Source of the DNA: a virus
Length of the DNA: 64,000 nt
Reading direction: 5' to 3' (one strand)
IMG/VR virus record: IMGVR_UViG_3300047554_000255
Coordinates: 47,221 to 111,220 of that record
Below the pieces are notes generated by a model. It saw only the letters and a list, made by a program, of their open reading frames with translations, did not search any database and was not told where the DNA came from. Made by a program: the position numbers and the translations under genes. Numbering within the stretch: the stretch's first letter is position 1; each line of letters starts with the position of its first letter. Positions 3 through 52,647 of this stretch are shown piece by piece.

Positions 3-3000
3 CGCATTTGGACTTAATAGATTAATAAAATGTCTCTTAACATCAGCAATGATCTCAGATGTATACTTCTTTTGTCCAATAGCAAAACTATCTTTTGATA
101 TCTCTTCTTGTTCGTTAAGATACTTAACAATAAACTGAGGGAAGAAACGTGTTACGTAACGTAAGTCAGCAATCTCACCACTGTTAGAACTTAATGACAT
201 AAGTAACTTAGCTGGCGCCATTGAGGCACTATTCAAGTTAAATACGTTAAGGTTCTTATTCTTTGCGTTGTCTAATGATTCGTTAAGAGTAGCAGAAGCA
301 TTCTGAGTCTTTGATCTTGTTAATGTCTTACCCGTAGCATCGCTCTTAAATGTAGTATTACCTTCTGCAGTTAGATAGCTAAGATTTACAATCTCACCGC
401 TATCTTTCTTAATGTTAATACCAGCAGAAAAACCAACAGTCTTTTTGTCTTGATGTTCAGCAAGGAATGATAATAGCTGAGCAAAGATACCTGTACCTAG
501 TTTACCACTTCTATTATCTAAGAACGTATTAATCTGAGTATTGTAATCAAACGGTAAGAAGTTAACTGGTAATGTTGCAATACCTTCTTTATAGAATAAC
601 TCTTTCTCATCGTTGTAATCAGACAAGTCAATAGATGACGTAATCTTATCAAACGTTGTTGGGTGAGTAAGTACTGACCAGTGTATATCTTTATACATCT
701 CAAACAACTGCTCTTCTGATAAAGACTTTGGATCAAAGTTTTTAAAATCGCTAATAGACGACTCGTAAGCAACTGGCTCAATAGATTCAATCTGTGACTT
801 CTGTGCTTTTATCTTATCGTTTATAGCAGTTAACTCAGCAGCTCTTTGACTCTTGATCTTATACTTTGTTTGATTAAGCTTCTTACGCTCCGTACCATTA
901 GCTACTTCATTATAAACAGCAGATCTCTTCTCATACAAACCATCAAGAATACGTTGCTTTTGCTCACGCTCTTTCTCACCTAGATTCTTATAACCTAAAC
1001 GAGCTCTATACTTTTCAATACTTTCATTAAGCTTTGCGATCTCGAACTGTTGCTCACTATTAAGAAGCTTTGCTAAATCACCATCTACTTTTTCTAACTC
1101 TTCTTTGTACTTGTTCTTTATAGCTTCTTTCTCTTTTGTAAGCTCATCTATTAACTTAGATGCAGAATCCTTGTAAGTATACTTAGGATTAGATAGATAT
1201 GCGTATAACTTATCAACGTCAAAGTCAGAACCCATTTGTGCTGTAATACCATCAGGAACAATAATAGTGTTCTCCATATATGATGGTAAGAAACCAGCAA
1301 CTTCAATAGGAAGCATTGATGAGTGTAGCTGATTTGGAATACGTGCACCAATAAGTTGTAATAACTTTCTTGGAATACGTGTACTATCAAGAATCAATCT
1401 ACCGTTCTCATCTTTTGTAGCAAAATCTTTTATGTTTATAAGCTTTCCGTTCTCATCCTTTAAGAACTGAGACATGAATACTTGTGCTGCTTGTACTTCA
1501 CCTTTCTTTACCTTCCCACCTTTAGCTACAGTATCAGCTTCTTTTCTGATATACTGTAATCCTTTTGATGCATCATACACTTCTGTATAAACAATCTCAC
1601 TCTTTAGCTTATCAGATAACTCACCCTCTTTAATCTTTGTACCAACTGCAGATACTTGTACTAATGATGTACCAGTAAGCTTTAGCTTCACTACTTTACT
1701 AAAGATAGATGTAAGTAATCCTTCGAACTTAGAGCTGTTTGATAATAGATATACAGGTATAACTAACTTACCGTCTTTGTTTGTTGCAATAGAACGGATA
1801 TCGTTTATACTTAAGTTACGAGAAACTGCTTCTTCTTTTAATAAGTTAGCAAGACTTCTCTCACTCTTGAAAGAAACATACTCATCAGTTATTGAAACAC
1901 CTATTCTATCAAGAAGCTCTTCAGCATTGCCTTCAAATAAAGCAACACGAATCTGTTCTTTCAATCCTTTTAACTGAGCTGCAGTAAGTTTCTTACCTGC
2001 AAACATAAAGTCAAGAACATTATCAAGACCTTCGAATAACTGACGGTCCATCTGACTAACAACGTTAATCATCTCTTTTTGATGAGGAATCTCTTGTTGT
2101 GTACGAAGACCTTCTCTTGAAAGAGTCTGCACGTTAGAAGAGAACTCAGCTTCAGATGGCTCAATAAAGTTACCATTATCATCAAACACTTCTAGTGTCG
2201 ATATTGGAGCACCTGTTTTTGTTGCCGTCTTAAATGCAGCAGAACCAACGTTGTTTTTCTCCATGAATACACGAAGCTTATCCATCTCTGAATCGCGTGT
2301 GTTATCTGGAATAAGAGGATATGCTGAAGACTTAACGTAGTTAATCTCATTAAAACCATCAGTCTCAGAGTTAGAAGAGTGTACAGGCTTTGTTGGCTGT
2401 AATACAAAACCTAACTCAATATCAGATAAAGAGTAATCAAAGGTTTTCTTCTTACGAGCTTCTGCTATCTTATCAGAAATACTCTCATAAATATCTAAAG
2501 GTATTCTACCCTCAGACATCATACGATTAATATGCTCTTGTAATGTAACAAACTCCTGAGCATCCGTTGTTTCAATCTTGCTAAACTGATCGTTAGACTT
2601 AATCACGTCTTTTAACGTAATCATCTTGTATAAAGATACATCAACAATCTTTCCCTTTGTGCTTTGCCAAGTTGTGGTACCCTGAGAACCAGGAGCAATA
2701 AACATAGCAGCACGTTTTGAGAACTCATCAACTGTACTTAGTACTGTACCGTTAAGAACATCGTTTATAATATTACGTTTGCTCTGCTCTTCTGGTGTCA
2801 TCTCAGTTGATACATTGTATGACAATAACTGATTAACAGTCATTGACTCACCAAATACCTCTTTGATTTGATCAGCACTAACAAGCTTTGATTCTTTATA
2901 GAACAAAGCCATATCAGCACCTAATACTTGAGTAGTATTGATTTGAGCTCTAAGAACATTATACTTTAAATCTGCAATAGCAAAGATCGCTTTACTTGAA

Positions 3001-5405
3001 TCTTGTAGCTGTGAAAGCTGATTCATGTAAACATTATTAAAGAAAGGAAAGTAATAAGATGTCTGCACTCTATTTGTCGCTGGATCAATACTAGTTGGTC
3101 CTTTTGATATAATGTTTTTACGCAACAAGTTAGACAACTCTTTTATAACGTCATCTTTTATTGACTCACCAATAAGATCTTTTAAGTATTGAGCATCTTC
3201 TATAGATGGTTCAACTCCTTGATAGATCTTTGTTCTGATCATGTTAAGCTTTGCATCAGAACGATTGTTTAATACTGGGAATAAAAAGAACATCTTACTA
3301 GCTGTTTCAAAGTTAGCAATGTTCAGCTTTTCTTTCTTAGTATAGTTAGCATACGCAATCATACGATCTATCTCAGCTTTTGCTAGATCATATAACTTAT
3401 TCTTGAATGCGTCTTTAAACTGGAATGAATCTCTAACGGTTGGCTTAGTCTTGAAGAAAGCAAAATCAGTTGATGGATCAAGACTATCTTTTGTTATCTG
3501 TATTACCGGAGCAGTTGTCTTATCCGATAAAGTAAACATATTATAGTAACCAGTCTTAGCAAAGTTATTCTGATGCTTTAAATATGTATCAAGAATCAAC
3601 TCTCTTGGCGATTGGTTCTTCTTAACCTTACCAATCTCTCCTTTCTTATCTTCTTTTATACTATCTGAATACGATATTGCATAAACAAATGATTCGTTAT
3701 CAGTCTTCTCGTCTTCAAGCAAACGTCTAACTACTTCTGAACTTTTACTATAAGCTCTTTTACTTAATACCTCTAAGAAACTCTTTGTCTTTAGCTTCTT
3801 CTTTACTGTTTCTAAGTAAGAAGGTTGTACATAAGCATAGATGTTTTTGTTCTCACCATTCTGATAGCTACCAGTTTGATAGATATCTGAGTGTAGATCA
3901 TAGTAAAGACTTGCAAGTATATTAAATACACGCTCGTGAACAATAGGGTTGTTCTTGTCTTCGTAGTTTGCTGACTCAGTTGTTGTATCAATATCAGCTG
4001 TTAACGTATTAAGAATATTATCAACAACATTACCTGTTGCAAGTAAATCAGAGAAGCTCTTTGCTTTAAAGGTTTTGAACTTGTTTGCTTTTAATGCTGC
4101 TCCAACATGTTTCATGTAAGCATCATCAACAGGAATATTCATTGAAGTAAGTAACTCTTTAAAGAACTCTTGTTTCTTTGTTAAGTTATTACCAGATCTA
4201 ATCTCTAAGTACTTCTCTTTCAATGACTTAGCTAACTCAGTGTTTATAACTAAGTTGCCAAACTTATTCTTGTTAACAAGCTTTGATACTTTTTGTAACT
4301 CTAACCAATCGTTTTTTATTTGTCTAACAACACTATTACGATTAGAGCTAATAACCTTAACACTTACACCACCTTCTTTAACTTTCTCCCAAAGCAACAT
4401 AGTATGATCTGTGTATGCTTTGTTTATTACAGTAAGTACTTCGTTTAGTAACTGAACATTCTTTGATGCTTGTAACTCACCTAACTTCTTGTGAACGTTT
4501 AATAGGTATGGCTTAACTTGAGCTTTCTCTAAAATAGCTTCTTGTAAAGACTCATAAGTAACATGTTGTAATCCTGCACCTAATACAAGTAAGTCTTCAA
4601 ATACTTGATCGTAAGGCACGAAATCAGCAAGACCTAATAGATTAGCCTTGTCACTCTTAATACTTGAAAATAACAGCTTTACACGAGTCGTAGCTGTATC
4701 CTTTGGGTTCATCTGGAATGAACGTGAATCAGAAAAGCTTTCATTTACAGAAGGGTCTTCAACATCAACATCGTCTTCACCAAATAACTCACCTGCATCA
4801 GCAAGTAAGCTCTCATAATATTCGTTTGTTAAACCAAAGTCTTGGATCTCGTTTTCAGATGTAACCTTTAGTCCTAAACGATTAAGCTTAATGATAACTT
4901 GCTCTGTGAACTTATCGAAGTTCTCATCATCAGTAACGTTATCTAGCAACTCTCCAAGATAAGAGAATTCCTTGTAGTTAAGAATACCAAGCTCAGGTAT
5001 CTTAGAAAGCATATCTTCTGTTGCTGATTCTTTTAAAGCATTATATGCTTCTTCTGAAGTAGCAATATTCTCAGTAAAGTACTTAACCTTTAAAGCTGTG
5101 TTCTTTAACTTACTCTTTATATCAGCAAATAAAACACGAGATGATTTCTCATACGTACCACCTGGCTTTAACAAACCAAGCTCATCAACGAACTGTGAAA
5201 AGATCGCGTTCGTTATTGACTGCTCTTGTACAAGATTAAATAAGTTGATGTTAACAAAGCGATCTTCAACAGCTTGTTTTACAAGATCTAATAATTGTTC
5301 ATCAGACAAACCTTCATTACCTGGTAGAGTAGCAGCACTCTTTAGAATCTGCTTAACCTCTACTTCTGAAAACTCTGATCCGCTAATGTTATATAAACAT
5401 GCCAT
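3..5405 (-). CDS. Giant virion-packaged DNA-dependent RNA polymerase (crAss-type), 5' part; ORF runs off the left end of the window
   Basis: Not in the ORF track, consistent with no stop inside the window; I spot-checked the frame only. ATG at 5405 lies just after the TAA of the 1889-aa gene and reads MACLYNISGSEFSEVEVK. In the same frame, QMGSDFDVDK (DFDVD at 1212-1226) is preceded by IGARIPNQLHSSM. These match the DxDxD catalytic loop and RIPxQ motif of crAss-like virion RNAPs such as phi14:2 gp66. Confidence 0.9.
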   Translation of the reverse strand, partial: MACLYNISGSEFSEVEVKQILKSAATLPGNEGLSDEQLLDLVKQAVEDRFVNINLFNLVQEQSITNAIFSQFVDELGLLKPGGTYEKSSRVLFADIKSKLKNTALKVKYFTENIATSEEAYNALKESATEDMLSKIPELGILNYKEFSYLGELLDNVTDDENFDKFTEQVIIKLNRLGLKVTSENEIQDFGLTNEYYESLLADAGELFGEDDVDVEDPSVNESFSDSRSFQMNPKDTATTRVKLLFSSIKSDKANLLGLADFVPYDQVFEDLLVLGAGLQHVTYESLQEAILEKAQVKPYLLNVHKKLGELQASKNVQLLNEVLTVINKAYTDHTMLLWEKVKEGGVSVKVISSNRNSVVRQIKNDWLELQKVSKLVNKNKFGNLVINTELAKSLKEKYLEIRSGNNLTKKQEFFKELLTSMNIPVDDAYMKHVGAALKANKFKTFKAKSFSDLLATGNVVDNILNTLTADIDTTTESANYEDKNNPIVHERVFNILASLYYDLHSDIYQTGSYQNGENKNIYAYVQPSYLETVKKKLKTKSFLEVLSKRAYSKSSEVVRRLLEDEKTDNESFVYAISYSDSIKEDKKGEIGKVKKNQSPRELILDTYLKHQNNFAKTGYYNMFTLSDKTTAPVIQITKDSLDPSTDFAFFKTKPTVRDSFQFKDAFKNKLYDLAKAEIDRMIAYANYTKKEKLNIANFETASKMFFLFPVLNNRSDAKLNMIRTKIYQGVEPSIEDAQYLKDLIGESIKDDVIKELSNLLRKNIISKGPTSIDPATNRVQTSYYFPFFNNVYMNQLSQLQDSSKAIFAIADLKYNVLRAQINTTQVLGADMALFYKESKLVSADQIKEVFGESMTVNQLLSYNVSTEMTPEEQSKRNIINDVLNGTVLSTVDEFSKRAAMFIAPGSQGTTTWQSTKGKIVDVSLYKMITLKDVIKSNDQFSKIETTDAQEFVTLQEHINRMMSEGRIPLDIYESISDKIAEARKKKTFDYSLSDIELGFVLQPTKPVHSSNSETDGFNEINYVKSSAYPLIPDNTRDSEMDKLRVFMEKNNVGSAAFKTATKTGAPISTLEVFDDNGNFIEPSEAEFSSNVQTLSREGLRTQQEIPHQKEMINVVSQMDRQLFEGLDNVLDFMFAGKKLTAAQLKGLKEQIRVALFEGNAEELLDRIGVSITDEYVSFKSERSLANLLKEEAVSRNLSINDIRSIATNKDGKLVIPVYLLSNSSKFEGLLTSIFSKVVKLKLTGTSLVQVSAVGTKIKEGELSDKLKSEIVYTEVYDASKGLQYIRKEADTVAKGGKVKKGEVQAAQVFMSQFLKDENGKLINIKDFATKDENGRLILDSTRIPRKLLQLIGARIPNQLHSSMLPIEVAGFLPSYMENTIIVPDGITAQMGSDFDVDKLYAYLSNPKYTYKDSASKLIDELTKEKEAIKNKYKEELEKVDGDLAKLLNSEQQFEIAKLNESIEKYRARLGYKNLGEKEREQKQRILDGLYEKRSAVYNEVANGTERKKLNQTKYKIKSQRAAELTAINDKIKAQKSQIESIEPVAYESSISDFKNFDPKSLSEEQLFEMYKDIHWSVLTHPTTFDKITSSIDLSDYNDEKELFYKEGIATLPVNFLPFDYNTQINTFLDNRSGKLGTGIFAQLLSFLAEHQDKKTVGFSAGINIKKDSGEIVNLSYLTAEGNTTFKSDATGKTLTRSKTQNASATLNESLDNAKNKNLNVFNLNSASMAPAKLLMSLSSNSGEIADLRYVTRFFPQFIVKYLNEQEEISKDSFAIGQKKYTSEIIADVKRHFINLLSPNA

Positions 5406-14168: not shown

Positions 14169-17100
14169 TTAACGTTGCCCGAACATTGCTAAGAATGGAT
14201 TAACAGCACCCATCATACTTGCTACTTGCTTGTCTGGATACCCATCGTAGTTACTATCTGTTGTAGTTCTAGTTGATTTACCAGATAACTGTGATTCTGC
14301 CCACTTCTCAGCCATTGCTTGAGGCATACCTAATGTTTTAGTTGCATAAGCTAACAAATCAGGATATGTATTCATACCTGCAGCAGAACTACCAGTTGTT
14401 GAGTTAAAAGGATTCTTACCACCTTTAAATGTAGATCTACCAGTAATAGGATCCATTGCAAAGTATGGATTAGATCTATTAACCATATCAAGCATAGCTC
14501 TATTCATAAATGCATTCTGATATGCAGCTAATGTTTGCTTATCAGCAGCATCTCTCATTGAGAAGTTCTCTAAGTTATACTTATTAACCATCTCACCTAA
14601 CATATTAGCAGCTTGTGCTCTTTGTGCTAAGTTTTGATTCTCAAGGGCAGTGTTTGTAGCATTAACTTGATTAGCAATACCAACGTTCTGCATGTTTGTT
14701 GCAGCACCAATATTTGATATAGCTTCTAGTTGCTTACCTGCTATTTGACTAGCTCCTGCAAGATTAGCTTGTGGTCTACCAAATGTACGTAAGCCTTGGT
14801 TCTGCATGTTTGCTTGTTCAGCAACTGCAGCATACTGTCTTGTAGGATCAGCAAATGCAGCTTCTTGTTTTACATAATCAGGAGCTTGAACAAACGGAGT
14901 CATTGTTGGAACACCAGCTCTTGTAAATAAAGATTGTAGCATTGCTAACTTATCTGGTGTCATATAAGAAAATCTATCAGCAGATTGCTTTTTAGCTACT
15001 TGTTTTACTGAAGCTTGCTTAGCTGCTACTGGTGCTGTTTCTTCAGGTCCCATTTGAGCTTCGTCATCACCTGTCCAATAAGATACAGGTTTTGTTTGTC
15101 CAATAACTGGTTGTTGAATATTAACTGGAAGACCTGGCTTCTTTAAAGGAAGCTTATTATAAGGAGTTAATGAAGGAGTACTATACGTTAACTCACCAAA
15201 CTTATCATCTGTAGCAAGAGGAGAAAGACCCGCTGCTATCAACTGTGGATTAACATACTCTTGGAAAGCTCTTGTAGCACCAGGTATTCTTGGATCCCAT
15301 GTTGGAGCGTTTTGGAAGAACTCTGGGAATCTTTGCTTAAAGTCTGCTTGATGTGCAGCATCCCACCAGTTCTCTTCTCCGTATACACCAGCTTTAGTTT
15401 TTGATTGCATTACAGGAACTGATCCTGGAGTACGTGCGTTCAACGGCATGCCAACATTATAGTTTGGCATCAATGAACTAAGAGTAGCTTGATCTTGTGG
15501 AGAATAAACTGGAACTCTCTGTACTTGACCTGCTGTTTGATATTCAACAAGACCACCATCTTCTTTTGCAAAGTTTCTAGCAAAGTTAGCTTTCTTAACC
15601 ATCTCTGGTGAATACTCATCTTTATTTGCTAAGATGTGTGCAGCAGCTTCTTGAGTGCTCATACCCATGCGTGTAGCTTGAGCTTTGAATGTACCTTTCT
15701 TTGATGGATCTAAATGAATACCACCATAAGCCATATTAGATGTAATCTTTTCTTGAACGTAATCTGGTAAAGCTTTGAAGCCTGGATTATTAATACCACC
15801 TTCTTGATACCATGCATTACCTGAGAATGTTGAACCACCACGCTTTTGATACTCCATAGCTTCAGGTGATTGTTCCATACCTTGCGGTTCTTGCATTCCT
15901 TGTAACTGTTCTGCAATCTCTGGAGGTAAAGCCATCATAGCAGCTTGAGGGATACCTTGAGGGAACCCTTTCTTTGCTTCTTGAGCTAACGCTAACTGGG
16001 CAAGCTTTAACTTGTTGTTGTTCATCATCATCTCAGCAGTACGTTTCTGATACTGATCTGCATTTGGATCTGCTAAGATAGCTTTATATTTGTTTATTTC
16101 ATACTGTTTAGCTAAATCAGCAGGAGTATATCCTTTGCTTGAACCAACAGATTTACCAAACTGAGCTAAAGCTTGACCTTTTAACTTCATGCTTTTTGTA
16201 TCAGAATAGATAAATGTACCTGGTTGTAAGTTTAATGGAGTACCACCTTGCGAGTGACGCTTACCGCCAATCTTTGAGTGTTCCATCTCACCATCGTTAT
16301 CTAAGTCACCATACGCAGTTTCACCACGTTCAGCTTCTAAGTTTGCCATATCTCTTGGTACAGCTTGTAAGGTATCTTTAACAACATATGGATCTGGTTG
16401 ACCCATCTCATTATCAATAACACGAGAACCAAGATCTAAACCAAGACCAGATTGTCCACCGTAAGCCATCATCTCACCGCCTTCTTCTCTACCAAAGATA
16501 TTCTGTGGCATATAGAAAGGACGCTTTGAATCCCAACCATCACCCATCTGATCACCAGGTATTCTGTTACGAGTCCAGTTTGGCATATTAGTAACTACAG
16601 GTGTTTGCTTCTTACCTTTTTTTGCAGGTAAGTTTGGATAAAATACAGGACCTTGGATTATTGATTCCCAAACAGATGGAGCATCATCCCAACCATCTCC
16701 ATAGTTTGCAGCACCAACAAAAGGTTGTGGGATATATCTAATACCGCTTGCAGGAAGTGGTCCTTGATCTTCCCAAGAATTATCAGGTGCTGCTGGTAAC
16801 GTAGAACGTTTGCTTTTTTTGACTGGTGCTTTACCCCAGCTATCATCATTATTAGTAGCAGGTGCAATATTACCAGGAGCTCCAAAAGGTTGAGGTATAT
16901 ATCTCATACCACTAGCAGGAGAAGGCATTGGTGTATTCCAAGAAGGATCTGTTGCTGTTGGCAAGCCAGATCTTTTATTTTTGGATTGAGGAGCTGCTTG
17001 TTCTTTTAATAAAGAAGATAAGTCTTTTTGATTTTTAAGCATCTCAAGCATCTGAAGATTTTGCTCTGCCGTACCCTTATAGTTTTTAATCCCAAGGTTC

Positions 17101-17315
17101 TGAGCTATCTTCTTGCGAGATTGGTAGTCAGCATTAGCTGCTTGACCATGAGCCGCTAAATAGTCATACACCGAAGGATTAGCTATTGCTTTTGGATATG
17201 CAGATTCAATACCTGCTGCTTGAGCCAATAGCTCTTCTTGAGTAAACATCGGCTGACCACCAGCTTGATACTGACGTGGCTGATTAAGCGTAACTCTTAC
17301 TTTATACTTCTTCAT
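14169..17315 (-). CDS. Modular cargo protein (1048 aa) with xxxGG linkers, a DUF3597-like module and an EAERGE...HSQGG domain
   Basis: ORF track. Contains the module SVYDYL...SRKKIAQNLGIKNYKGTAEQNLQML and linkers YQAGG, REEGG, MAYGG (x2), QKRGG, YQEGG, KEDGG. C-terminus is Gln/Asn/Ala-rich. Confidence 0.6.
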   Translation of the reverse strand: MKKYKVRVTLNQPRQYQAGGQPMFTQEELLAQAAGIESAYPKAIANPSVYDYLAAHGQAANADYQSRKKIAQNLGIKNYKGTAEQNLQMLEMLKNQKDLSSLLKEQAAPQSKNKRSGLPTATDPSWNTPMPSPASGMRYIPQPFGAPGNIAPATNNDDSWGKAPVKKSKRSTLPAAPDNSWEDQGPLPASGIRYIPQPFVGAANYGDGWDDAPSVWESIIQGPVFYPNLPAKKGKKQTPVVTNMPNWTRNRIPGDQMGDGWDSKRPFYMPQNIFGREEGGEMMAYGGQSGLGLDLGSRVIDNEMGQPDPYVVKDTLQAVPRDMANLEAERGETAYGDLDNDGEMEHSKIGGKRHSQGGTPLNLQPGTFIYSDTKSMKLKGQALAQFGKSVGSSKGYTPADLAKQYEINKYKAILADPNADQYQKRTAEMMMNNNKLKLAQLALAQEAKKGFPQGIPQAAMMALPPEIAEQLQGMQEPQGMEQSPEAMEYQKRGGSTFSGNAWYQEGGINNPGFKALPDYVQEKITSNMAYGGIHLDPSKKGTFKAQATRMGMSTQEAAAHILANKDEYSPEMVKKANFARNFAKEDGGLVEYQTAGQVQRVPVYSPQDQATLSSLMPNYNVGMPLNARTPGSVPVMQSKTKAGVYGEENWWDAAHQADFKQRFPEFFQNAPTWDPRIPGATRAFQEYVNPQLIAAGLSPLATDDKFGELTYSTPSLTPYNKLPLKKPGLPVNIQQPVIGQTKPVSYWTGDDEAQMGPEETAPVAAKQASVKQVAKKQSADRFSYMTPDKLAMLQSLFTRAGVPTMTPFVQAPDYVKQEAAFADPTRQYAAVAEQANMQNQGLRTFGRPQANLAGASQIAGKQLEAISNIGAATNMQNVGIANQVNATNTALENQNLAQRAQAANMLGEMVNKYNLENFSMRDAADKQTLAAYQNAFMNRAMLDMVNRSNPYFAMDPITGRSTFKGGKNPFNSTTGSSAAGMNTYPDLLAYATKTLGMPQAMAEKWAESQLSGKSTRTTTDSNYDGYPDKQVASMMGAVNPFLAMFGQR

Positions 17316-17327
17316 AATAATATAGTA

Positions 17328-17344
17328 TCTACTCTATAATTTAC
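17328..17344 (-). promoter_or_regulatory. Conserved late-promoter-like motif copy
   Basis: GTAAATTATAGAGTAGA upstream of the 1048-aa gene. Confidence 0.55.
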
Positions 17345-17382
17345 TAAAATATTGCTAGTTTAACAAGCTAAACTTCAAGGGT

Positions 17383-20300
17383 TTAACAGAACTCTACTTT
17401 ACCACCCATAGCTTTAATCTGCTGTATCTCTTCCATAGTAAGTTCCATCTCACCGCCAAACTGTGATTTACTAAGTGCTTTCTTATAACTGTTTAGGTTC
17501 TTATTAAAGTTTTGACCCCATGTCATTCTATTACCATAGTCTGCTCTTGGGATTTGATTCATTACAGTCATATCTCCTTTTGCTGCTCTTGAAGCAAACT
17601 CAGGATAGTACCATGCACCTAAAGCGTAGACACCATAGTTCTTAATATGATCAACAGCAAGTGATCTAGCAGCTTGATACTCAACTTGTGGATCTTTATC
17701 AAAGGCTGCTTTAAACGCATTAAACGTTGGGAAGGCATCATTAAACTGATCTTTCTTGTAAATCTGCTTAAGAGTACCATCAGTGATTTGGAATGTACCT
17801 GAAGCACTAGCTCTCTTACCACCATCTCCAATAAGTTTAGTACGCATACCAACTTTTGATTGTCCTTTCTTTGAACCAGATTCTGTACCAGCAATAGCTT
17901 CAAGCATCTTATCTGGATCTAATTCTAAACCAGCAACATCAGCAGCAGGTGTTACGTTATATGATTCAGGACTTGCAGGTGTTGCCACTTCAGGGGATTT
18001 TGTTGCTGGCATATCAAAAGCAGCATAGTTTAAATCTGGTGTAAGATTAGGAACCATTGTTGGTGCCATACCTAAAGCAACATCAAGACTTGTTAAACCA
18101 CCATCAGCAAAGAAACCAGGAACACTCATTTGATCTGGTTTGTATAAACCATATGAGCTTGGTCCTTGAGAGTAATCTCCACGATTCATTATTGAATCAT
18201 ACTGTTGATTCCATGTAGCATTCTGAGAACGTAACATCTGACGGTTTGCTTCTTCTCTTTTTGCTTGTGCATTAAGATTAGCTCCACCAATAAATGTGTT
18301 AAGTGCAAAGAAAGGATTAAGCATAGGATTAGACTTCTGCTGTTTTTTTTGATCAGTTGTTGTAGCAGTAGCTGCTGTATTCTCTTTTAATATCTTACTC
18401 TTCATCTGACCTGCAATACCTGCCCCTTCTTGAGATACTGCATCATATACACCAAATGGATTTGTATCAGATGGCATTTGTGCTTGAGCATCAGCTGCTT
18501 CTTGTGCTGGATTAAGATTAGGGAAGAATGGGTTTTGTTTACCAACTTGTGCTTTTAATAAACCACCTTTCTTTTTATAAGCTAAGCGTTGTACCATCTC
18601 GTTATAAGCAGTACCACCTTGTTGCTTTATAAACTTAGCTTTGAAGTCATTAAACGCATCTGCTACAGAACCAGTAACACTATTAAAAGTACTAGCTGCT
18701 CTATCCATAAGACCAGGCTCACCCATTGCATTAACAACGTTATACTTTGATATACCAGGTAAAGCAATACCATCTTTTGGATCATCAATAACATAGAATG
18801 CAGGATGATCTTTACTTGATGCTGTACCATGATACATCATACCGTCGCCAAAATAACCAATATGTTCATGACCAGCATTATTGCCAGCATACAGCATGCG
18901 GTTAGCATAGTCTCTACTATCATTAGCTTCAGCCGTAGTTTTAGCCATCTTACCATCAAAGTTATCTTTACGATTAAGACCAACTAATACACCAGATAGT
19001 TGTTTAACTTCTTCTGGAAACCCATAACTTCTTGGATTATGTAACGGTTTACCTGCCTCTAGTTCTTCTTTATACCCTGGGTTAACGTATAGTTCAGGAA
19101 TGTTACCTCTATATCCCCAAGCATTATTTCTACCAAAGTCATATCCTTTTGCATCGCCAATCTGTCTTGCAATATCAGCACATCCTTTCGCGGTACAAAC
19201 AAACTTAGAACCAGGATACATCTTGTTTAGCTCTTCAGCTTTTGCAATACCTTCAGCATCTAATGCGTTATAACCATACTCTGATAGATCAATGTATCCT
19301 TTCTTTGGTTTAATAACTTGACCAGCTGTTTGATACTTCTGCATGCCACCATACTTTAACTCTGACATCTCTAAGAACTTCTGTTGATTGTAAGCTACGT
19401 CATCACGTCTAAAATCAGACATCATCTGCTTAGCAATCTCAGCACGGTTTTGTGGATCTCTTACTTGTGATAAGATATCAGCAATACCTTCTACCATCTC
19501 GCGTTCATTACGTGTCTGACCACCTTCAGCAAATGGTAAAAACTTATTACCTGGTAGTTGCTGTATTGCTTGATAAGCATCTGAGCCTCTACCAGCTGTT
19601 CCAATAGCATCAATAGTTTTTGAAAGAGTTGCATTCTTTGGTAAAGCATTATATAATACTTTATCTAAGCCTTTATATTTTTTAAGATGAATACCCGCTT
19701 TAGTTAACTTTCCTAGTTTTCCTAATAAAGGTAAAGCTCCAGCTATTTCAATACCTGTTTCATACCACTTAGAGTTTGGATCTACTGCGGAACGATATAC
19801 ATCATCCCAAGAAGTAATTCCTGTTGGGTCAAATACCTCTGCAATATTTTCAAGAGTAGAATCAGTCTGACCTCCATCTTGCCAAGTAGCTCTAGCAAAA
19901 GCTCTGAAGTAAGGATTAGCATCTAAGTTCTTTTTATGACGTGCATAGAAAGCTGCTTTACGTTCTGGATCTTTTGGATGTTGTCCTAACTTAGAATCAC
20001 CAAAGTATTTAACTGTACCATCTGGACCAGTTACTTTGTGTGTCTTACCTTTTCTATCAGAGCTTCTTGTAACAGTATAACCACCGCTACCAAACTCAGG
20101 CATATATCCACCAAAGCTCATCTCTGATAATATCTTATGTTGAACATAGTCAGGCAGTGCTTGAAAACCAGGATTGTTTGTACCACCCTGACCCATAACT
20201 TCCATACCATATTGACCTTTTCTCCAGCCTCCACCATGTGACTTATACCACTTAGCAGCAAATCCATTAGCATAAGCAGATGGATATACATCATACTTAG

Positions 20301-20934
20301 CTTTAGCTGCTGCCTTAGCTCTTGACCATAATGCTGGGTTAGTAGGAACGTTTCCGCCTTTTGCCATTAGTTCTGTTGGGTAATCGTAGTTATAATCCAT
20401 TATATCTCCACCGTATTGTTTTCTTCTATGTTGATAGTTAATACGCTCACTAGAAGTTTTTGATCTCTTAAACTTTTCACGTTCAGCACTTGATAACTCA
20501 CTTGCTGTTTTTGGTGTATCTTCACTTACTCTTTTTGAAGGACGACATGCTGGATAACCTGCTCTGCTTTCACCTTCTTGTCTACCGCAAGGTTTACCAG
20601 TCTTAACATCAACCCACTTCTCTGCAAACCATCTATCTAATCCACCGTGCTGACCACCCTTAGCCATCTCAGCATATTCATCCATAAAAGGATACTCCAT
20701 AACACTACTAGCACCAGGATAAGAATATTGCTGATTAGGATACATCATCTGAGGTTGTCCAACATTAGGAACACCTAACACAGGATAGCTAACACCATCC
20801 ATCGTAATGTTATTAGAAGGGATGTTTGTTACCTCACCAGGATGTTGCCATTGATTCTTTGGAACCTTTGGCTTACTTGGTTTTTTGTTTAGATCCTTTG
20901 TAATCTGTGTTAATAATGATCTGTTAAAACTCAT
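17383..20934 (-). CDS. Modular cargo polyprotein-like protein (1183 aa) with small basic modules, a Cys/His peptidase-like module and a C-terminal lysozyme/transglycosylase-like module
   Basis: ORF track. About 12 xxxGG linkers. The C-terminal AIAGTESG...SASGTFQITDGT resembles the SLT/lysozyme ES and GxxQ motifs. Start overlaps the muzzle stop (ATGA). Confidence 0.6.
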   Translation of the reverse strand: MSFNRSLLTQITKDLNKKPSKPKVPKNQWQHPGEVTNIPSNNITMDGVSYPVLGVPNVGQPQMMYPNQQYSYPGASSVMEYPFMDEYAEMAKGGQHGGLDRWFAEKWVDVKTGKPCGRQEGESRAGYPACRPSKRVSEDTPKTASELSSAEREKFKRSKTSSERINYQHRRKQYGGDIMDYNYDYPTELMAKGGNVPTNPALWSRAKAAAKAKYDVYPSAYANGFAAKWYKSHGGGWRKGQYGMEVMGQGGTNNPGFQALPDYVQHKILSEMSFGGYMPEFGSGGYTVTRSSDRKGKTHKVTGPDGTVKYFGDSKLGQHPKDPERKAAFYARHKKNLDANPYFRAFARATWQDGGQTDSTLENIAEVFDPTGITSWDDVYRSAVDPNSKWYETGIEIAGALPLLGKLGKLTKAGIHLKKYKGLDKVLYNALPKNATLSKTIDAIGTAGRGSDAYQAIQQLPGNKFLPFAEGGQTRNEREMVEGIADILSQVRDPQNRAEIAKQMMSDFRRDDVAYNQQKFLEMSELKYGGMQKYQTAGQVIKPKKGYIDLSEYGYNALDAEGIAKAEELNKMYPGSKFVCTAKGCADIARQIGDAKGYDFGRNNAWGYRGNIPELYVNPGYKEELEAGKPLHNPRSYGFPEEVKQLSGVLVGLNRKDNFDGKMAKTTAEANDSRDYANRMLYAGNNAGHEHIGYFGDGMMYHGTASSKDHPAFYVIDDPKDGIALPGISKYNVVNAMGEPGLMDRAASTFNSVTGSVADAFNDFKAKFIKQQGGTAYNEMVQRLAYKKKGGLLKAQVGKQNPFFPNLNPAQEAADAQAQMPSDTNPFGVYDAVSQEGAGIAGQMKSKILKENTAATATTTDQKKQQKSNPMLNPFFALNTFIGGANLNAQAKREEANRQMLRSQNATWNQQYDSIMNRGDYSQGPSSYGLYKPDQMSVPGFFADGGLTSLDVALGMAPTMVPNLTPDLNYAAFDMPATKSPEVATPASPESYNVTPAADVAGLELDPDKMLEAIAGTESGSKKGQSKVGMRTKLIGDGGKRASASGTFQITDGTLKQIYKKDQFNDAFPTFNAFKAAFDKDPQVEYQAARSLAVDHIKNYGVYALGAWYYPEFASRAAKGDMTVMNQIPRADYGNRMTWGQNFNKNLNSYKKALSKSQFGGEMELTMEEIQQIKAMGGKVEFC

Positions 20935-23900
20935 CGTTGACTGATTTGTAGCTTAGTGCTTATTATCTTGAATAACATTTTGGTTGAACCACTCTTTATC
21001 TTACGTAAGAATACACGGTTTGCATAGTGTCTAAACTTCTTACGCTCAATCTCTGACTTCTTATAGTCAACATACTTTGGATTAAGAGCTCTTGTATATC
21101 CGTTTGACGATACATTAAACATAGGAACCTCGTTACCAACAAACTCACCTCTGTTCTTTGTAATATCCCAGAACTGGTTAAAGCGGTACTTGTTCTCTTC
21201 TTTTGAATAGTTGATCTTTATGCTATCAGATTGAACCATTGGATATAGTAACAAGCTTATAGGATCATCCTTTCTCTTTAAGTTAAGGTCTAAGTAACCT
21301 GATACTTGTTCTGAATTATATACTAAAGCTCTATCAAAGTTATCATCAAGAAGATGGAACTTATCATTACCATCATTTAGATACTTAAAGCACTCAAGAA
21401 TGTACTCAACGTTCTTAACAGTAGCTACATTAACACCTGTTGATGCTACATACTCTACTTCAAATGGATAATCAACACCATAGAAGTTACAGTATAAGTC
21501 AGTTCTGCTGTTATGTCTCCATACACCTTTATCTTGTACAGTCAAGAATGAACTTCTTGCTGGAATAATAAAGTTAGGATGCCAGTCATGGATTGATATA
21601 AACTGTTCGTTCTTAACATCATAACTCATTGTCCAAGATGCATTCTCAAAATGTAATGGATCTCCAAGAGTTACAGCAGTCTTTGTTTGTTTAACAACGC
21701 CATTATCAATAAACTCTTCTCCTAGTGTGTAGAATCCATTTATTGTGTCGTACTTAAGATCTTTGTTTATTGGCTTGTAATCCTTTTTAGTAATGTATAA
21801 GATCTCATTAGTATTATCATAGGACATGTTACAACCAACACCAATAAGAGGATTATCGTAGTGAGCAAAGTTTGGAAAAGCTTTGAGCAACTGTGAAGGA
21901 AGATACTTAGCAAACCACCACTTGTTGCCGTTTCTTGAGATTTCTTTATACTGTCCCGCATACTGGAATATTTTACCTTGTTCCTGAGATACCCAGAATA
22001 CACCAGCTGGTATACCAACAATAGCATACTTACTCTGACATGAGCCATATTGGTACTCATCATCAGTATTCATAATGTTTCTCATTGGTTGGTTAAATAA
22101 ACCTCCATCTCCAACGGTAATCTTGATACCTGCATCTGTTTGTAGTGAGTCAACACCTTGAATCATTATTGGTGATTCATTCTCTAACATAATAAGGGCT
22201 CCTGTGTGACCAACAGACTTTAAAGCTGTTACTCTACCACTCATATCAATGTAGTTGTTAGGTAAGAAACGCACCCAGTTATCTTGCATTTGCTCTTGCT
22301 CTTGTGGAAGAGAATACATAATTCTGTTTGGTGAGTAACTATAACATTGCTCAGCTACTTTTGGATCGTAGCTACGAGGCTGCATTGATCCCCAACTAAC
22401 ATAGTTGTTGTATAACTTAGATACACTAAGAGAGTAATCATACTTGTAGTAGTTACCCTTCTTCATAATGTCTGATCTAAACATTGATGTAAGATCAGTA
22501 TACTTATCCGGATCGTAGTGACGCTTATCAGGAGTCTCATCCCAATCGCGATATGCTAAGTTTACTTCTGACTCTACAAAGAAGTCTCTAACCCCATTAC
22601 AGAATAAGTAGAAGTGCCCTCTGTTAACATAAGAATCAACCTCATGTCTATCGTCAAGGTGTGAGAACGCTGTTGTACCATCTGTTACTAAACGTTTTGC
22701 ATCTGTATTCTCTAACCAATATCTTGGGTAAGCAACAGACATTCTTGCACGATAGTCATATAACAACTCATCTTGTTGATCATACAACCAATCATGGAAG
22801 AATAAGAACGGATTCTTTTCTGTGTAACGACCAATGTAAATATCTCCACCAAATAATACATCAGTTGAATAAACCTTTGTTTTATCTGGTTGAGTTTGAT
22901 ATACACATGTATATACAGGAACTTGCTTGATAGATTCTAGCTGACCATACTGAGATGGAAACGCTGATTTAATGGCACCGTAGTATCCTGAGATCGCAGA
23001 TTTAACCGTTGTATTAAGATCAGTCTGTAACTGTGTCTTTGTGTTTCTACTAGTGTCAACTATTTTTGGAGCATCAAACTCACGAGTTGTATTAACTAAT
23101 ACATACTTACCTCTATGCAAGTTATTGATTCTATACTCATTGTAAGACTGTAAGTTGTCTCCGATATAGAAAGCATCAGCTACTTTTCTACGAGCATTAT
23201 CAACACCTGTGTTAATACTGTAGTTGCTATAGAATCCATGTGAGTCATACTGTGTTGCAAACTGACGCTTTGGTATCATGCTTGCAACAACGTTTATTAC
23301 CTTTTCACTGTATTGATCTTTTAATAACTTAGCAGCATAGATTAAAGCAACAACGTTTGCTGTATAGATAGCAAGGTTTGCAACATAAGCAGCAATTGAT
23401 ATAGCAGTTGTTACAGCACCTGTAGCACCAAAAGCATCTGAAGCAGCAGCAGGAGGAGCTGGAGTTGGAACACCGCCACCTAAAGAGAACTCGAACGGCT
23501 CACCTTCTGTACCGCCAAACTTAATAGTTTTCGCCGCATTCGTAAGGAGATTAGTTGCAATAAGAGTACTAAGTAGATTATCAATAGTTCCTTTTGCAGC
23601 TTCACTTAAAAGCTTAAACTGTGGGTGTTTGTATACATACTTGAAAGATCCTTCAGATGTACCATATACTTCACTATAAACCTTAAGTTCAGATGCTGAA
23701 AGATATGGTTTAGAGAATGATGTATCAGGACTATGGAAAGAGAACATGTCTTTTCTATATTCCTTAAGACCATCTTCTAAACGATTGTTTCTTGCACCAC
23801 GATCAATAAAGCTCTTGTTTGACGTTAAGAAAAGATCTTCTCTTAAGTCATTGTATGGATAGTTCTGATACAAACCTTTTACTCCTGGTTGATCAGGCAT

Positions 23901-25529
23901 ATCATGTTGACGCATGTTGTTTAATAAACCCTTTGCAACAACAGTCTTATTACCTTCTCTTGAACCTCTAAGGATCTCATATCCAATAATATCATTTAAT
24001 GGATTACCAGCATTATCTACTGGTACAGAGATATTCTCAAACTTAACTCCAAGAATACGTATCTTATCACCACCTTGTGACTGATGATATACTTGTTCAG
24101 CTAATGAGTTATCAGGAAACTTATGATGTCTAATCTTTTCTCCACATAAGTTACCCCAAATCTCTGGTTTATTATCTGGATAAATCTCTGTAGATTCCCA
24201 GAAACCCATCTCTCCTTCAGCAATAACAACACCACCGTCTGCACGTGGTGTATTAGGAACAGATAAAACCTCAGCTGTGTTCTTTACTTTCCATACTTCG
24301 GGTGAATCATCTCCTTCAATAGCACTTGCATCTGCAGAGAATAAGTAATTACGCTCATCTGTACGAGGAGCTCTACCAGGAATATGGTATGATGCTGACT
24401 TATCACCTGTATTGTATATCCATCTGATAAAGAAAGCATACTGCTCATCTCTCATGTATCCTGTATTGTTACCACCTTTTAAGTAATAGTTTGCAGGATA
24501 CTCAACACTTGCCCACTTAGTTTGGATCTTATTAGCTAATGGTTGATAATTAAAGTCAAACTTACTTTGTATACCAACTCTAACAAGATAGTTGTTTAAT
24601 CTAAATGTTGCATCAGATGATTCAATCGCTGGAGTTACTAATGGAATAAGTTCAAGTGGTACTGTAATAAGATCTGGTTCAACAGAATCAATATACACAC
24701 GGTTCTGATTAACTGAGTATATACCTAATCTTTTGGCCGTAGTTTGATTATTTACTACTGAGATGAGTACTAACTCAAACTCATCAAAATCTTGGTCTGT
24801 ATTCGAGATATCAACGGTTAAACTACCCCCTTCTCCATCATGATCAAACAAACCTTGTACTTCAGATACAACAAGATAGTCAGTAACACGAATACTATTG
24901 ATTGAATAAGCAATCGCTACTTGATAAGAACCATTACGTAATGTACCAGCAGCTTTACCTTTCTCAATATTAACACATGGTATAGTTAAGATTTGAGCAA
25001 GACGCATCTGCTCAACGTCAAGAACTCCTGTTGATTGTTCAATGTAGCACTCGCCTTGCTTTACTTTCTTTGTAACATAAGGAACATTATCAAGATCTAA
25101 TACACGAGATGGATTACGACGACCATCATCAAAGTATACTTTATATCCGCAATCAAATCCTTTACGAGATGCTCCTGTGATAAGATTGTTCTTATGAAAG
25201 TTTAACCCACGGTCATTAACAACAGTCTTGTATGTTCCAAGGTTAGCATCAAAGATACCAATCTCAGAATCAACGTTGTCAGTTGTAAATAAAGCCCATG
25301 TACCATCTGTAATAGGTATAGAACCAATAAGTGTATATGGTAAGTCAACTGTATGTAGGTTAGCTGGCTCATTACCAAGAACACCAACTTGCCCATCATG
25401 TGAGTTGTTGACAGCGTTTCGTGCATGCAACCATACGCCTTCACCAACGAAGGTTTCGTTAAGGTCTTTCATCATACCTTTTGAGAAGGTATTGATTACA
25501 CTAGCGTTATCTTTTGGTGATGTTGCCAT
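20931..25529 (-). CDS. Tail stabilization / muzzle protein (crAss-type)
   Basis: 1532 aa with N-terminal NTFSKGMMKDL, a GYMRDEQYAF motif and C-terminal ISIHDW/YNSEQVSG. Located after ring genes and before cargo genes, as in crAss-like phages. Confidence 0.75.
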   Translation of the reverse strand: MATSPKDNASVINTFSKGMMKDLNETFVGEGVWLHARNAVNNSHDGQVGVLGNEPANLHTVDLPYTLIGSIPITDGTWALFTTDNVDSEIGIFDANLGTYKTVVNDRGLNFHKNNLITGASRKGFDCGYKVYFDDGRRNPSRVLDLDNVPYVTKKVKQGECYIEQSTGVLDVEQMRLAQILTIPCVNIEKGKAAGTLRNGSYQVAIAYSINSIRVTDYLVVSEVQGLFDHDGEGGSLTVDISNTDQDFDEFELVLISVVNNQTTAKRLGIYSVNQNRVYIDSVEPDLITVPLELIPLVTPAIESSDATFRLNNYLVRVGIQSKFDFNYQPLANKIQTKWASVEYPANYYLKGGNNTGYMRDEQYAFFIRWIYNTGDKSASYHIPGRAPRTDERNYLFSADASAIEGDDSPEVWKVKNTAEVLSVPNTPRADGGVVIAEGEMGFWESTEIYPDNKPEIWGNLCGEKIRHHKFPDNSLAEQVYHQSQGGDKIRILGVKFENISVPVDNAGNPLNDIIGYEILRGSREGNKTVVAKGLLNNMRQHDMPDQPGVKGLYQNYPYNDLREDLFLTSNKSFIDRGARNNRLEDGLKEYRKDMFSFHSPDTSFSKPYLSASELKVYSEVYGTSEGSFKYVYKHPQFKLLSEAAKGTIDNLLSTLIATNLLTNAAKTIKFGGTEGEPFEFSLGGGVPTPAPPAAASDAFGATGAVTTAISIAAYVANLAIYTANVVALIYAAKLLKDQYSEKVINVVASMIPKRQFATQYDSHGFYSNYSINTGVDNARRKVADAFYIGDNLQSYNEYRINNLHRGKYVLVNTTREFDAPKIVDTSRNTKTQLQTDLNTTVKSAISGYYGAIKSAFPSQYGQLESIKQVPVYTCVYQTQPDKTKVYSTDVLFGGDIYIGRYTEKNPFLFFHDWLYDQQDELLYDYRARMSVAYPRYWLENTDAKRLVTDGTTAFSHLDDRHEVDSYVNRGHFYLFCNGVRDFFVESEVNLAYRDWDETPDKRHYDPDKYTDLTSMFRSDIMKKGNYYKYDYSLSVSKLYNNYVSWGSMQPRSYDPKVAEQCYSYSPNRIMYSLPQEQEQMQDNWVRFLPNNYIDMSGRVTALKSVGHTGALIMLENESPIMIQGVDSLQTDAGIKITVGDGGLFNQPMRNIMNTDDEYQYGSCQSKYAIVGIPAGVFWVSQEQGKIFQYAGQYKEISRNGNKWWFAKYLPSQLLKAFPNFAHYDNPLIGVGCNMSYDNTNEILYITKKDYKPINKDLKYDTINGFYTLGEEFIDNGVVKQTKTAVTLGDPLHFENASWTMSYDVKNEQFISIHDWHPNFIIPARSSFLTVQDKGVWRHNSRTDLYCNFYGVDYPFEVEYVASTGVNVATVKNVEYILECFKYLNDGNDKFHLLDDNFDRALVYNSEQVSGYLDLNLKRKDDPISLLLYPMVQSDSIKINYSKEENKYRFNQFWDITKNRGEFVGNEVPMFNVSSNGYTRALNPKYVDYKKSEIERKKFRHYANRVFLRKIKSGSTKMLFKIISTKLQISQR

Positions 25530-44171: not shown

Positions 44172-44172
44172 C

Positions 44173-52227: not shown

Positions 52228-52647
52228 CTATTTTAAGAACAGTAACTTATACTTGATACTGTTAAGGGTTGACTTAATCATATCTAAGTCGTTTACTATT
52301 TCACTGTAAGGCATCATGCCTTGTAAAGATGTAACCATCTGGTATACATCTCTAATATAAGATAACGCTTCTTGCACACTATTCAAAGGACGTGGTGCAT
52401 TATCTTCATACGTTAACAACTTCTCTGCAGCTCCTTGGAATCCTTCAGCTAGTGCATCAGCATGTCCTGGTAAAGCATCATATAACTCGTTAAGAGCTTT
52501 ATGAGATGAGAATGAACCTAAGTCTTTTACCTTTAGGTGTAGTTTATGGAAGCTAGTTGCTGCATTCATTAACTCGCTAACACAAGCAGCTGTCTTTGCT
52601 TCTAAAGATCCTCCACTATAACTAGCAGGGCGTTGTAATTTCTGCAT
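52228..52647 (-). CDS. Ferritin/Dps-like four-helix protein (DUF5856-like)
   Basis: HKLHL...HKALNELYD...DALAEGFQG...KYKLLFL matches the Dps-like metal-ligand pattern. Confidence 0.7.
   Translation of the reverse strand: MQKLQRPASYSGGSLEAKTAACVSELMNAATSFHKLHLKVKDLGSFSSHKALNELYDALPGHADALAEGFQGAAEKLLTYEDNAPRPLNSVQEALSYIRDVYQMVTSLQGMMPYSEIVNDLDMIKSTLNSIKYKLLFLK

Follow-up and report, generated by a model that had tools for sequence, protein, structure and literature searches.

Two adjacent genes of what appears to be a distant crAss-like phage encode proteins that are strings of modules joined by short peptides ending in Gly-Gly (GG), termed seams here. The genes lie on a 64,000-nucleotide stretch of DNA ("the window," whose numbering is used unless the genome is named), which covers positions 47,221 to 111,220 of IMG/VR virus record IMGVR_UViG_3300047554_000255. 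The seams are enriched in both proteins, coincide with the points at which relatives exchange modules, lie between ends that stay constant, and recur in the cargo protein gp45 of phage crAss001. We hypothesize, with about even confidence, that the two proteins are particle-borne cargo that is ejected from the virion and that the seams stay uncut, serving as hinge, handle, and exchange joint. The two loci are as follows.

17383..20934, minus strand: putative cargo gene A, encoding protein A (P0001), 1183 amino acids (aa), 18 GG sites
14169..17315, minus strand: putative cargo gene B, encoding protein B (P0002), 1048 aa, 10 GG sites, probably related, though remotely, to cargo protein C1 (gp45) of crAss001

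No viruses are more abundant in the human gut than the crAss-like phages, which are also common in seawater and which load and eject several megadaltons of protein. Their cargo proteins have a single seam peptide at the module boundaries, and it is present in over 2000 proteins in databases as well as in crAss001, whose structure has been solved. The peptide offers a straightforward way of dividing giant proteins that otherwise resist annotation into modules, and it would explain how effector cassettes are exchanged in frame. If the seams are cut, they would represent a new phage polyprotein system; if they are not, they would represent a design rule for threading multidomain proteins through a tail. 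Literature searches found no description of seams. Also new here are the link to the resolved pieces of gp45, a cassette that moves among gut phages, constant C-terminal tags, and a conserved zincin-like domain in a neighboring giant protein.

Gly-Gly seams in two adjacent genes

A preliminary description of the window had listed 13 xxxGG motifs in protein A and 7 in protein B. All of them are present, and the coordinate attached to each marks where its second Gly codon ends. The GG dipeptide itself is in modest excess, with 19 occurrences against 12.0 expected in protein A (z score of 2.1) and 10 against 7.4 in protein B (z = 1.1). The longer motif [MFYW]xxGG occurs 8 times in protein A against 1.64 expected (z = 5.1) and 4 times in protein B against 0.97 (z = 3.0), a clear enrichment. 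The comparison with the other open reading frames (ORFs) of the genome that had been suggested agrees with the statement that the flanking proteins lack the pattern: the 1532-aa protein is not enriched (z = 1.0), and the 1010-aa, 1889-aa, and giant-protein ORFs fell under the two-site threshold for listing. Elsewhere in the genome, for which 111 ORFs were called in all, a z score above 3 was reached only by a 221-aa phosphoesterase with two sites. Two other ORFs are of note for their glycine content. A 321-aa protein (43206-44171, minus strand) is 33% Gly with 54 GG dipeptides, and a 585-aa tail fiber protein (36475-38232, minus strand) is 18% Gly but, in the manner of collagen-like G-X-Y repeats, has 1 GG where 19 are expected (z = −4.9); both are Gly-rich for a reason other than that of the cargo seams.

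The seam signal is stronger across the two families than in the window. The 113 homologs of family A contain 2427 GG dipeptides against 1312 expected (1.85-fold), and the 119 homologs of family B contain 1196 against 742 (1.61-fold). Over 2063 sites the consensus reads [M/Y/W/F]-[Q/A/E/K]-x-G-G-[E/Q], with Met at 28% in the first position. Seams are often arranged in tandem at distances of 5 to 12 residues; stretches of 12 residues or fewer make up 30 to 32% of all inter-GG stretches, compared with 10% in shuffled sequences. In alignments of 23% and 37% mean column identity, gut phages included, the few columns that do not vary include the seam glycines, which are almost invariant in a family-A alignment of 11% mean column identity. 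Most seam codons are GGT GGT or GGT GGA, and no longer DNA word common to the seams was apparent by eye.

Whether the linkers are disordered between folded modules had been put forward as a check, and the structural models agree with this in part. The AlphaFold2 (AF2) models are of low confidence overall, with a mean predicted local distance difference test (pLDDT) score of 50 for protein A and 62 for protein B, but confident domains could be recognized at residues 31-85, 475-527, and 541-750 of protein A and at residues 45-105, 308-474, 541-583, 601-723, and 780-966 of protein B, all of them bounded by seams. In protein B, 8 of the 10 GG sites fall within low-confidence stretches or at their margins, whereas KIGG350 and SQGG357, neither of which had been listed as a linker, lie inside a folded core.

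The two proteins also have peptides in common. A 28-aa cassette, GG-xNNPGFxALPDYVQxKIxSxMxxGG, is found in both with 71% identity. The peptide YQTAGQV, which had been reported to follow a GG closely in each protein, does so at residues 534-540 of protein A and 592-598 of protein B. This peptide (15516-15700; protein A residues 529-540) resembles a seam variant that is longer by one residue, YQxxG as opposed to YQxGG, and in relatives its place is taken by YQTKGQV, AQTGIE, or AQDGVE.

Exchange of cassettes and layout of the proteins

It had been proposed that the linkers fall at boundaries between unlike segments and that modules are added or swapped between them like cassettes. Both proposals are supported by comparison with relatives, which number more than 1000 in the databases for each protein and lie mostly on contigs of 90 to 135 kb. 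The seams separate modules of different kinds, and the breakpoints of module gain and loss coincide with them: 56% of the ends of BLAST high-scoring segment pairs (HSPs) in protein A and 41% in protein B lie within 5 residues of a GG, against null values of 16% and 10%. Random sets of sites matched the observed coincidence in 0 of 2000 trials for protein A and in 1 of 2000 for protein B, and GG places first or second among all frequent dipeptides in this respect. Judged by these comparisons of sequences, the seams are real exchange points.

Insertion, loss, reordering, and exchange are all seen at seams among the relatives. The ortholog P0005 lacks residues 95-278 of protein A, with breaks at seams; another ortholog has an insert between residues 358 and 463; and a third carries the basic modules near its C terminus rather than after the N-terminal domain. 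Cassettes of protein B occur in many relatives of protein A, and the core of protein B lies inside four of them. Modules also occur as free-standing or differently strung genes in unrelated cyanophages, an example being an 86-aa DUF5872 gene of Prochlorococcus phage P-SCSP2 with 68% identity. The T4-like cyanophage Synechococcus phage S-BM3 has, between its genes for the small terminase and gp15, a gene (OQ319121.1, 713-1726) for a 337-aa protein that is built from the same small basic modules (a DUF5872 half, the NPALWSK...GGGW module, and others) and has GG where they join, which indicates that the module set reaches far beyond the crAss-like phages. Two further relatives, P0337 and P0386 (400 and 430 aa, on contigs of 124 to 126 kb), consist of small cassettes with approximately 10 to 16 seams and the constant C-terminal tag and have no N-terminal beta domain; some of their seams are only 5 to 9 residues apart (..AYGG/YIPEMMYGG/NQFMEEGG/EPNGG/..). 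Domains found in relatives include DUF5754, DUF3597, YkuD, glucosaminidase, amidase_2, LysM, and SET.

In both families the ends are constant and the middle is variable, and the whole chain therefore looks like an addressed unit. Protein A begins with a constant beta domain, which is followed by variable cassettes, a predicted NlpC/P60-like domain, a poorly modeled C-terminal third, and a constant C-terminal tag.

20680..20934, minus strand: constant N-terminal beta-rich domain of family A (residues 1-85; AF2 pLDDT 86-92 at residues 31-85), stopping just before the first seam, MAKGG (93)
19861..20679, minus strand: zone of small basic cassettes between seams (residues 86-358), from Pfam, ortholog breaks, and short relatives
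19348..19521, minus strand: small helical module (residues 472-529) flanked by FAEGG471 and LKYGG529 (AF2 pLDDT 72-77)
18685..19314, minus strand: predicted NlpC/P60-like cysteine peptidase fold (residues 541-750; AF2 pLDDT 80-93), with a candidate Cys in CTAKGCADIA and a candidate His in GHEHIGYF
17383..17457, minus strand: constant C-terminal tag after seam SQFGG (residues 1160-1183), reading GGEMELTMEEIQQIKAMGGKVEFC

Homolog coverage climbs from 34 to approximately 100 sequences across residues 1-85, and HSP ends accumulate at residue 84. The zone of basic cassettes contains a DUF5872 half (94-160), an NPALWSRAK...GGGW module, the NNPGF...MSFGG cassette that is also present in gene B, and a GGYTVTRS...WQDGG module. 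The match of protein A to DUF5872 (PF19197; E = 3.7e-19; 69.9 bits against a cutoff of 27.5) comprises two matched stretches, with residues 94-160 corresponding to profile positions 51-110. The helical module has low-confidence stretches at both of its seams in the AF2 model, with HSP starts at residues 468-470 and HSP ends at residue 530. Residues 541-750 are probably a cell wall endopeptidase as predicted from the structural model, which aligned to more than 10 NlpC/P60 structures with VIA-align Z scores of 4.7 to 5.3 and a root mean square deviation of 3.7 to 4.1 over 102 to 112 residues; a Pfam scan of the same residues gave no match. Pfam searches with excised modules, the C-terminal third of protein A among them, also gave no match, and the idea of a lytic transglycosylase in that third, raised by an AGTESG stretch, was not confirmed by Pfam. 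Tags of the class ..E[LV]T..[EQ][LI]..[LI][KR]..G[GY].[FI]E[FI][IL] end 68 of the 113 family-A members, and a second class, NWLExxxN, ends 20 of the 113. G1160 and G1177 are almost invariant in the family-A tag. The last codon of protein A (17386-17388) encodes Cys (KVEFC), and this terminal Cys is not conserved, as the tag ends in I, L, M, or D beyond the closest six relatives.

Protein B has a 20-residue leader at its N terminus and a helical domain at its C terminus, with a portal-binding-like core in between.

17256..17315, minus strand: constant N-terminal leader MKKYKVR... closing in seam YQAGG (residues 1-20), from family-B comparison
16455..17255, minus strand: lineage-specific insert between seams YQAGG19 and MAYGG286 (residues 21-287), from a jump in coverage, a phrog match, and AF2
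15876..16454, minus strand: core with two structural GGs (350 and 357) inside the fold, from AF2 (pLDDT 76-91) and profile alignment to gp45
15516..15875, minus strand: cassette zone with seams QKRGG, YQEGG, MAYGG, and KEDGG and then YQTAGQV (residues 481-600), holding the GGIHLDPSKKGTF...KEDGG cassette
14418..14978, minus strand: conserved long helical hairpin domain of family B closing at FKGG965 (residues 780-966), from AF2 (pLDDT 76-88) and coverage by 116 to 118 homologs

A GG falls within the first 45 residues of 101 of the 119 family-B members (median leader, 19 aa; MAYGGQ in 52). In most relatives the leader, MKKYKVRIK...MAYGG, runs directly into the core, whereas 267 residues intervene in this phage, and homolog coverage accordingly rises from approximately 14 to 119 at residue 281. 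The insert consists of a peptidoglycan-binding-like helical domain (residues 45-105; phrog_2307, E = 2e-12), which resembles the wall-binding domains of Bacillus phage endolysins, and a GDGWD-repeat stretch of low AF2 confidence. In 52 sequences G286, Q288, G357/358, and G493/494 are invariant, so that AYGGQ and the GG at 493/494 are fixed. The GGIHLDPSKKGTF...KEDGG cassette occurs in 0 to 2 copies at varying seams in gut crAss phages and near the C terminus of many family-A proteins. Structural matches to the hairpin in a VIA-wide search were nonspecific coiled coils only (Z of approximately 7), chains of the T7 tail complex and IpaB among them. No Pfam family matched protein B at an E of ≤0.1, PDB sequence searches with both proteins and the family-B profile gave no match, and Foldseek searches with both whole AF2 models, which are long and mostly of low confidence, returned nothing at an E of ≤0.001.

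Cargo identity and the fate of the seams

The portal, terminase, and major capsid protein of this phage match crAss-type families in PHROG, and the portal is 23 to 24% identical to gut Crassvirales portals and 33% identical to that of Leptolyngbya phage Lbo-JY46. Genes A and B, which are tightly spaced on the minus strand, follow a muzzle-like gene and precede three very large proteins that correspond to the RNA polymerase block.

20931..25529, minus strand: upstream neighbor, a 1532-aa structural protein of the virion that holds the position of muzzle gp44 in crAss001 (phrog_37948, E = 2.5e-67; gene order)

In crAss001 the corresponding order is gp44 (muzzle), gp45 (C1), gp46 (C2), and gp47-50 (RNA polymerase cargo), which upholds the designation of A and B as cargo-type genes. 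On the strength of this gene order and of the probable remote homology, proteins A and B are probably packaged in the particle and ejected. Elsewhere in the window, the interval from the terminase to the portal gene includes a PhoH-like ATPase gene (61010-61753, minus strand; Pfam E = 1.5e-62), and a 139-aa head-block protein (52228-52647, minus strand) matches DUF5856 (E = 5e-14) and, below the Pfam cutoff, the ferritin-like domain.

The probable relation of protein B to gp45 is remote. With hhalign, the protein B family profile aligned to a profile of seven gut gp45 proteins over 120 columns (E = 2e-4; probability, 46%), placing residues 315-449 on gp45 405-543; against a single gp45 sequence, the E was 0.07 and the register was different. 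BLASTP of protein B against crAss001 C1 gave no significant similarity, fold searches with the whole protein B model did not list 7QOG, and a six-frame search of the 111-kb genome with PF25725 (crAss_CARG1) gave no match at an E of ≤10. Because of this last result, protein B is termed a probable remote relative of C1 and not a member of its family.

Seams are also present in crAss001 gp45 itself, at FSAYGG209, AFAEGGG263, LKAFGG332, AKDGG373, NAFGG427, and MFAYGG562. Those at 209/210 and 562/563 are invariant among seven Steigviridae gp45 proteins, in which a GGIHI..RG.F...GG cassette occurs in 0 to 2 copies at varying seams. Two pieces of crAss001 gp45 have been resolved by electron cryomicroscopy, residues 214-245 in the tail barrel and 425-552 at the portal (Bayfield et al. 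2023, PMC10172136; PDB 7QOG chain M). Each of these pieces falls within one seam-bounded module, and the second opens with the seam AFGG (425-428). Since the quoted model range covers AFGG-W429, this seam appears to be ordered and continuous with W429. The authors of the structure read gp45 as a single chain from tail to capsid and mention neither seams nor processing (PMC10172136).

Under the reading that we favor, each seam would be an uncut joint in a string of small autonomous modules held between constant ends, the modules being basic DNA-binding-like mini-domains, a wall-binding domain, the predicted NlpC/P60-like peptidase, and others. The Gly-Gly would act as a hinge, which would allow the chain to be stored and to pass through portal and tail one module at a time. 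The preceding hydrophobic residue would provide a short handle that docks on a partner, and because all seams are alike, seam-to-seam recombination could swap cassettes in frame. That the seams remain uncut and act in this way is what we infer from several observations. The AF2 models place seams in low-confidence stretches between confident domains, the abundance of short inter-GG stretches makes the seams tandem in the manner of spacer repeats, and the gp45 model runs across a seam. The gel of crAss001 virions has bands at 150, 270, and >300 kDa, which indicates that the giant cargo proteins are whole.

The preliminary description had instead proposed that the GG sites are cut to release small effectors, with a repeated loading or binding signal as the alternative. 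Nothing shows cutting; the gp45 model spans AFGG-W429, no GG-specific protease was found among the families searched, and the alternative fits at least as well as cleavage. The likeness to the adenain site (M/I/L)xGG-X that had been pointed out is partial: the sites do end in Gly-Gly, but over the 2063 sites the hydrophobic residue stands at P5 and not at P4, which is occupied by Q/A/E/K. No protease for the sites had been identified in the window, and the searches described below gave none there either, but a candidate was found outside it in the neighboring giant protein.

3..5405, minus strand: N-terminal 1801 aa of a 2829-aa giant cargo protein, the rest of which lies outside the window
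Genome bases 44136-45200, minus strand, outside the window and approximately 2.0 to 3.1 kb from its left end: zincin-like HExxH domain close to the C terminus of the 2829-aa protein, with HELLHG at residue 2635

The motif at residue 2635 is the only HExxH in the genome. A full-library search with the last 620 residues of the giant protein returned 76 relatives, mostly proteins of 2000 to 4700 aa, and HExxH was kept in 64 of the 64 relatives whose BLAST alignment covered the motif, at 23 to 65% identity. An acidic E/D-Q/E-R motif follows approximately 20 to 30 residues later in most of the aligned relatives. Six of 10 short members of the domain family had subthreshold SprT-like or Zincin_1 matches, and the giant protein itself had a weak Peptidase_M1 match. 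Neighbors of the domain in the Atlas fall in LPD23/LPD1 clusters, which is a lead only, and tblastn against cultured phages gave one weak match. In crAss001 (NC_049977.1), YHEAFHVVF at residue 2157 of the 2341 of gp47 is the sole HExxH in gp47, gp49, and gp50 and has the same relative place as that in the giant protein; our custom hidden Markov model of the zincin domain did not detect gp47. The domain is thus a candidate protease as judged from its sequence.

Other candidates were sought in the genome, which is 91% complete. Six-frame searches for the Ulp1/adenain-like protease that had been suggested (PF00770 and PF02902) gave no match at an E of ≤1. Those for the HK97-type prohead protease (PF04586) and C39 (PF03412) likewise gave no match, the T4-type S77 and ClpP/S49 families not having been searched. 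MPTase-PolyVal (PF18818), LPD23 (PF18838), and LPD1 (PF18796) also had no match in six frames, and a Pfam scan of ten unannotated structural-block ORFs revealed no protease.

In the strongest competing explanation, the chains are polyproteins that are loaded whole by way of their constant ends and cut at the seams, in the capsid or after ejection, by the zincin-like domain or a host enzyme to give many small effectors. We regard this as possible but doubtful. Several features speak for it and against uncut seams. The consensus is specific and site-like, with a preferred E/Q after the cut position, and its five residues with Met at 28% exceed what a passive linker needs. The short leader closing in a seam, in the 101 family-B proteins noted above and in a 97-aa free-standing DUF5872 protein (MSTVNKKSRLQIAYMAKGG/QHGG...), resembles a removable propeptide. 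Modules occur elsewhere as autonomous genes, and modules with different presumed sites of action, such as wall hydrolases and DNA-binding-like domains, would function more easily if they were released. The neighboring cargo protein carries the conserved zincin-like domain, with its invariant HExxH, mostly retained acidic motif, and subthreshold family matches. A zincin-like HExxH domain fused to or traveling with virion RNA polymerase has been proposed as the processing enzyme of the polyvalent proteins, and N4-type virion RNA polymerases carry one (PMC5512222). In addition, the continuity of gp45 over G428 rests on the residue range quoted in the paper, and the docking partner of the seam handle may be only hypothetical.

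Opposed to cleavage are the crAss001 gp45 model, which crosses a seam, the giant cargo proteins that are whole on gels, and the N4 virion RNA polymerase, which is packaged uncut despite its zincin domain (PMC5512222). Searches of the 91%-complete genome turned up neither an adenain or Ulp1 homolog nor a C39 or HK97-type protease, the zincin-like domain matched none of the MPTase-PolyVal, LPD23, and LPD1 models, and nothing ties it to Gly-Gly specificity. Cuts at tandem seams 5 to 12 residues apart would moreover yield useless peptides. In a more specific version, which seems rather unlikely to us, the enzyme would be the zincin-like domain of the neighboring giant protein, and it would cleave the chains, already loaded whole by means of their constant ends, at [M/Y/W/F]-x-x-G-G while they are in the capsid or soon after they have been injected. 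If this were true, Crassvirales and their marine relatives would deliver a customizable cocktail of small effectors from a polyprotein made of cassettes, a bacteriophage counterpart of adenovirus and African swine fever virus (ASFV) core-protein processing that uses an unrelated protease.

It is also conceivable, though we think it distinctly improbable, that the seams are primarily multivalent stickers or loading signals, with hydrophobic-x-x-Gly-Gly peptides binding the capsid interior, the portal, the tail barrel, or each other by avidity, possibly in a condensed cargo body, and with any hinge function secondary. The tandem clustering of seams and the restriction of enrichment to cargo genes would fit, as would the 400- to 430-aa all-cassette proteins with their approximately 10 to 16 seams and C-terminal tag and a 78-aa single-module ORF with seams at both ends, although this ORF comes from a 1.8-kb contig and is perhaps a fragment. 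The peptides have no known binding partner, however, and are unstructured in the AF2 models, and this explanation overlaps the hinge-and-handle reading so far that sequence alone does not separate the two. Taken together, these two uncut readings seem fairly probable to us, and cutting is the less likely outcome.

Finally, the seams could be a by-product of composition or a scar of cassette-moving recombination, as the weak enrichment of GG alone in the two proteins (z = 2.1 and 1.1) and descent of all seams from one ancestral joint would allow, but this very remote explanation is largely refuted by the conservation of seam glycines in divergent alignments (23%, 37%, and 11% mean column identity), together with the family-wide excess (1.6- to 1.85-fold), the motif z scores of 5.1 and 3.0, and the 0 to 1 of 2000 random site sets that reached the observed boundary coincidence.

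Relation to known systems

Clan CE cysteine proteases of viruses process polyproteins and precursors at sites of the GG-X kind: the consensus is (M/I/L)-x-G-G for adenain, GG-X for ASFV pS273R, and AG-X for poxvirus I7. As in this clan CE processing, the candidate sites here end in Gly-Gly with Met or some other hydrophobic residue ahead of it and belong to core-type proteins that are probably packaged, and short leaders end in GG. They differ in that the hydrophobic residue is at P5 rather than P4 and in that no Peptidase_C5/C48 homolog was found in the 91%-complete genome. In phage T4, the prohead protease gp21 recognizes L/I-x-E and removes a capsid-targeting leader from internal proteins. 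The proteins described here, which would also be packed in the head and injected, resemble these in that their short N-terminal leader is constant and a conserved site-like peptide comes after it. Unlike in T4, the motif is x-x-G-G and is repeated 10 to 20 times, and no S78 prohead protease was found, the T4-type S77 family not having been searched.

The ejection proteins of podoviruses, such as the lytic transglycosylase gp16 of T7, gp4/gp7/gp16/gp20 of P22, and the pre-ejectosome of Anabaena phage A-4L, exit the capsid before the DNA does and breach the cell wall. The likeness to them consists of this role, which proteins A and B would share, and of the weak coiled-coil matches of the protein B hairpin, which include T7 tail-complex chains but are nonspecific, with the Z of approximately 7 that is given by long helices. 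We know of no seam motif or cassette exchange in podovirus ejection proteins.

Among known kinds, those nearest to proteins A and B are cargo protein C1 of crAss001 and the polyvalent proteins described by Iyer et al. The latter are large mosaics of 2 to 15 unrelated domains that are delivered with the DNA and extensively shuffled, and their domains include lysozyme or peptidase, DNA-binding, and unknown ones (Iyer, Burroughs, Anand, de Souza, and Aravind 2017, PMC5512222). That work describes no junction peptide and does not treat crAss-like phages (PMC5512222). Proteins A and B resemble polyvalent proteins in having at least 2 unrelated domains per chain, a mosaic architecture, and a module order that differs between relatives; the zincin-like domain of the neighboring giant cargo protein, which the MPTase-PolyVal model does not match, may be a further likeness, and delivery with the DNA would follow here from gene order and from crAss001. 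Their modules are mostly much smaller (25 to 80 aa) than those of polyvalent proteins. With C1, the two proteins share the slot after the muzzle gene, the seam peptides, the GGIHI...GG cassette family, and a basic N-terminal leader that closes in GG-Q. This phage differs in having two cargo genes rich in seams, one of which carries modules of predicted wall-degrading enzymes; in crAss001, gp46 (C2) is free of seams.

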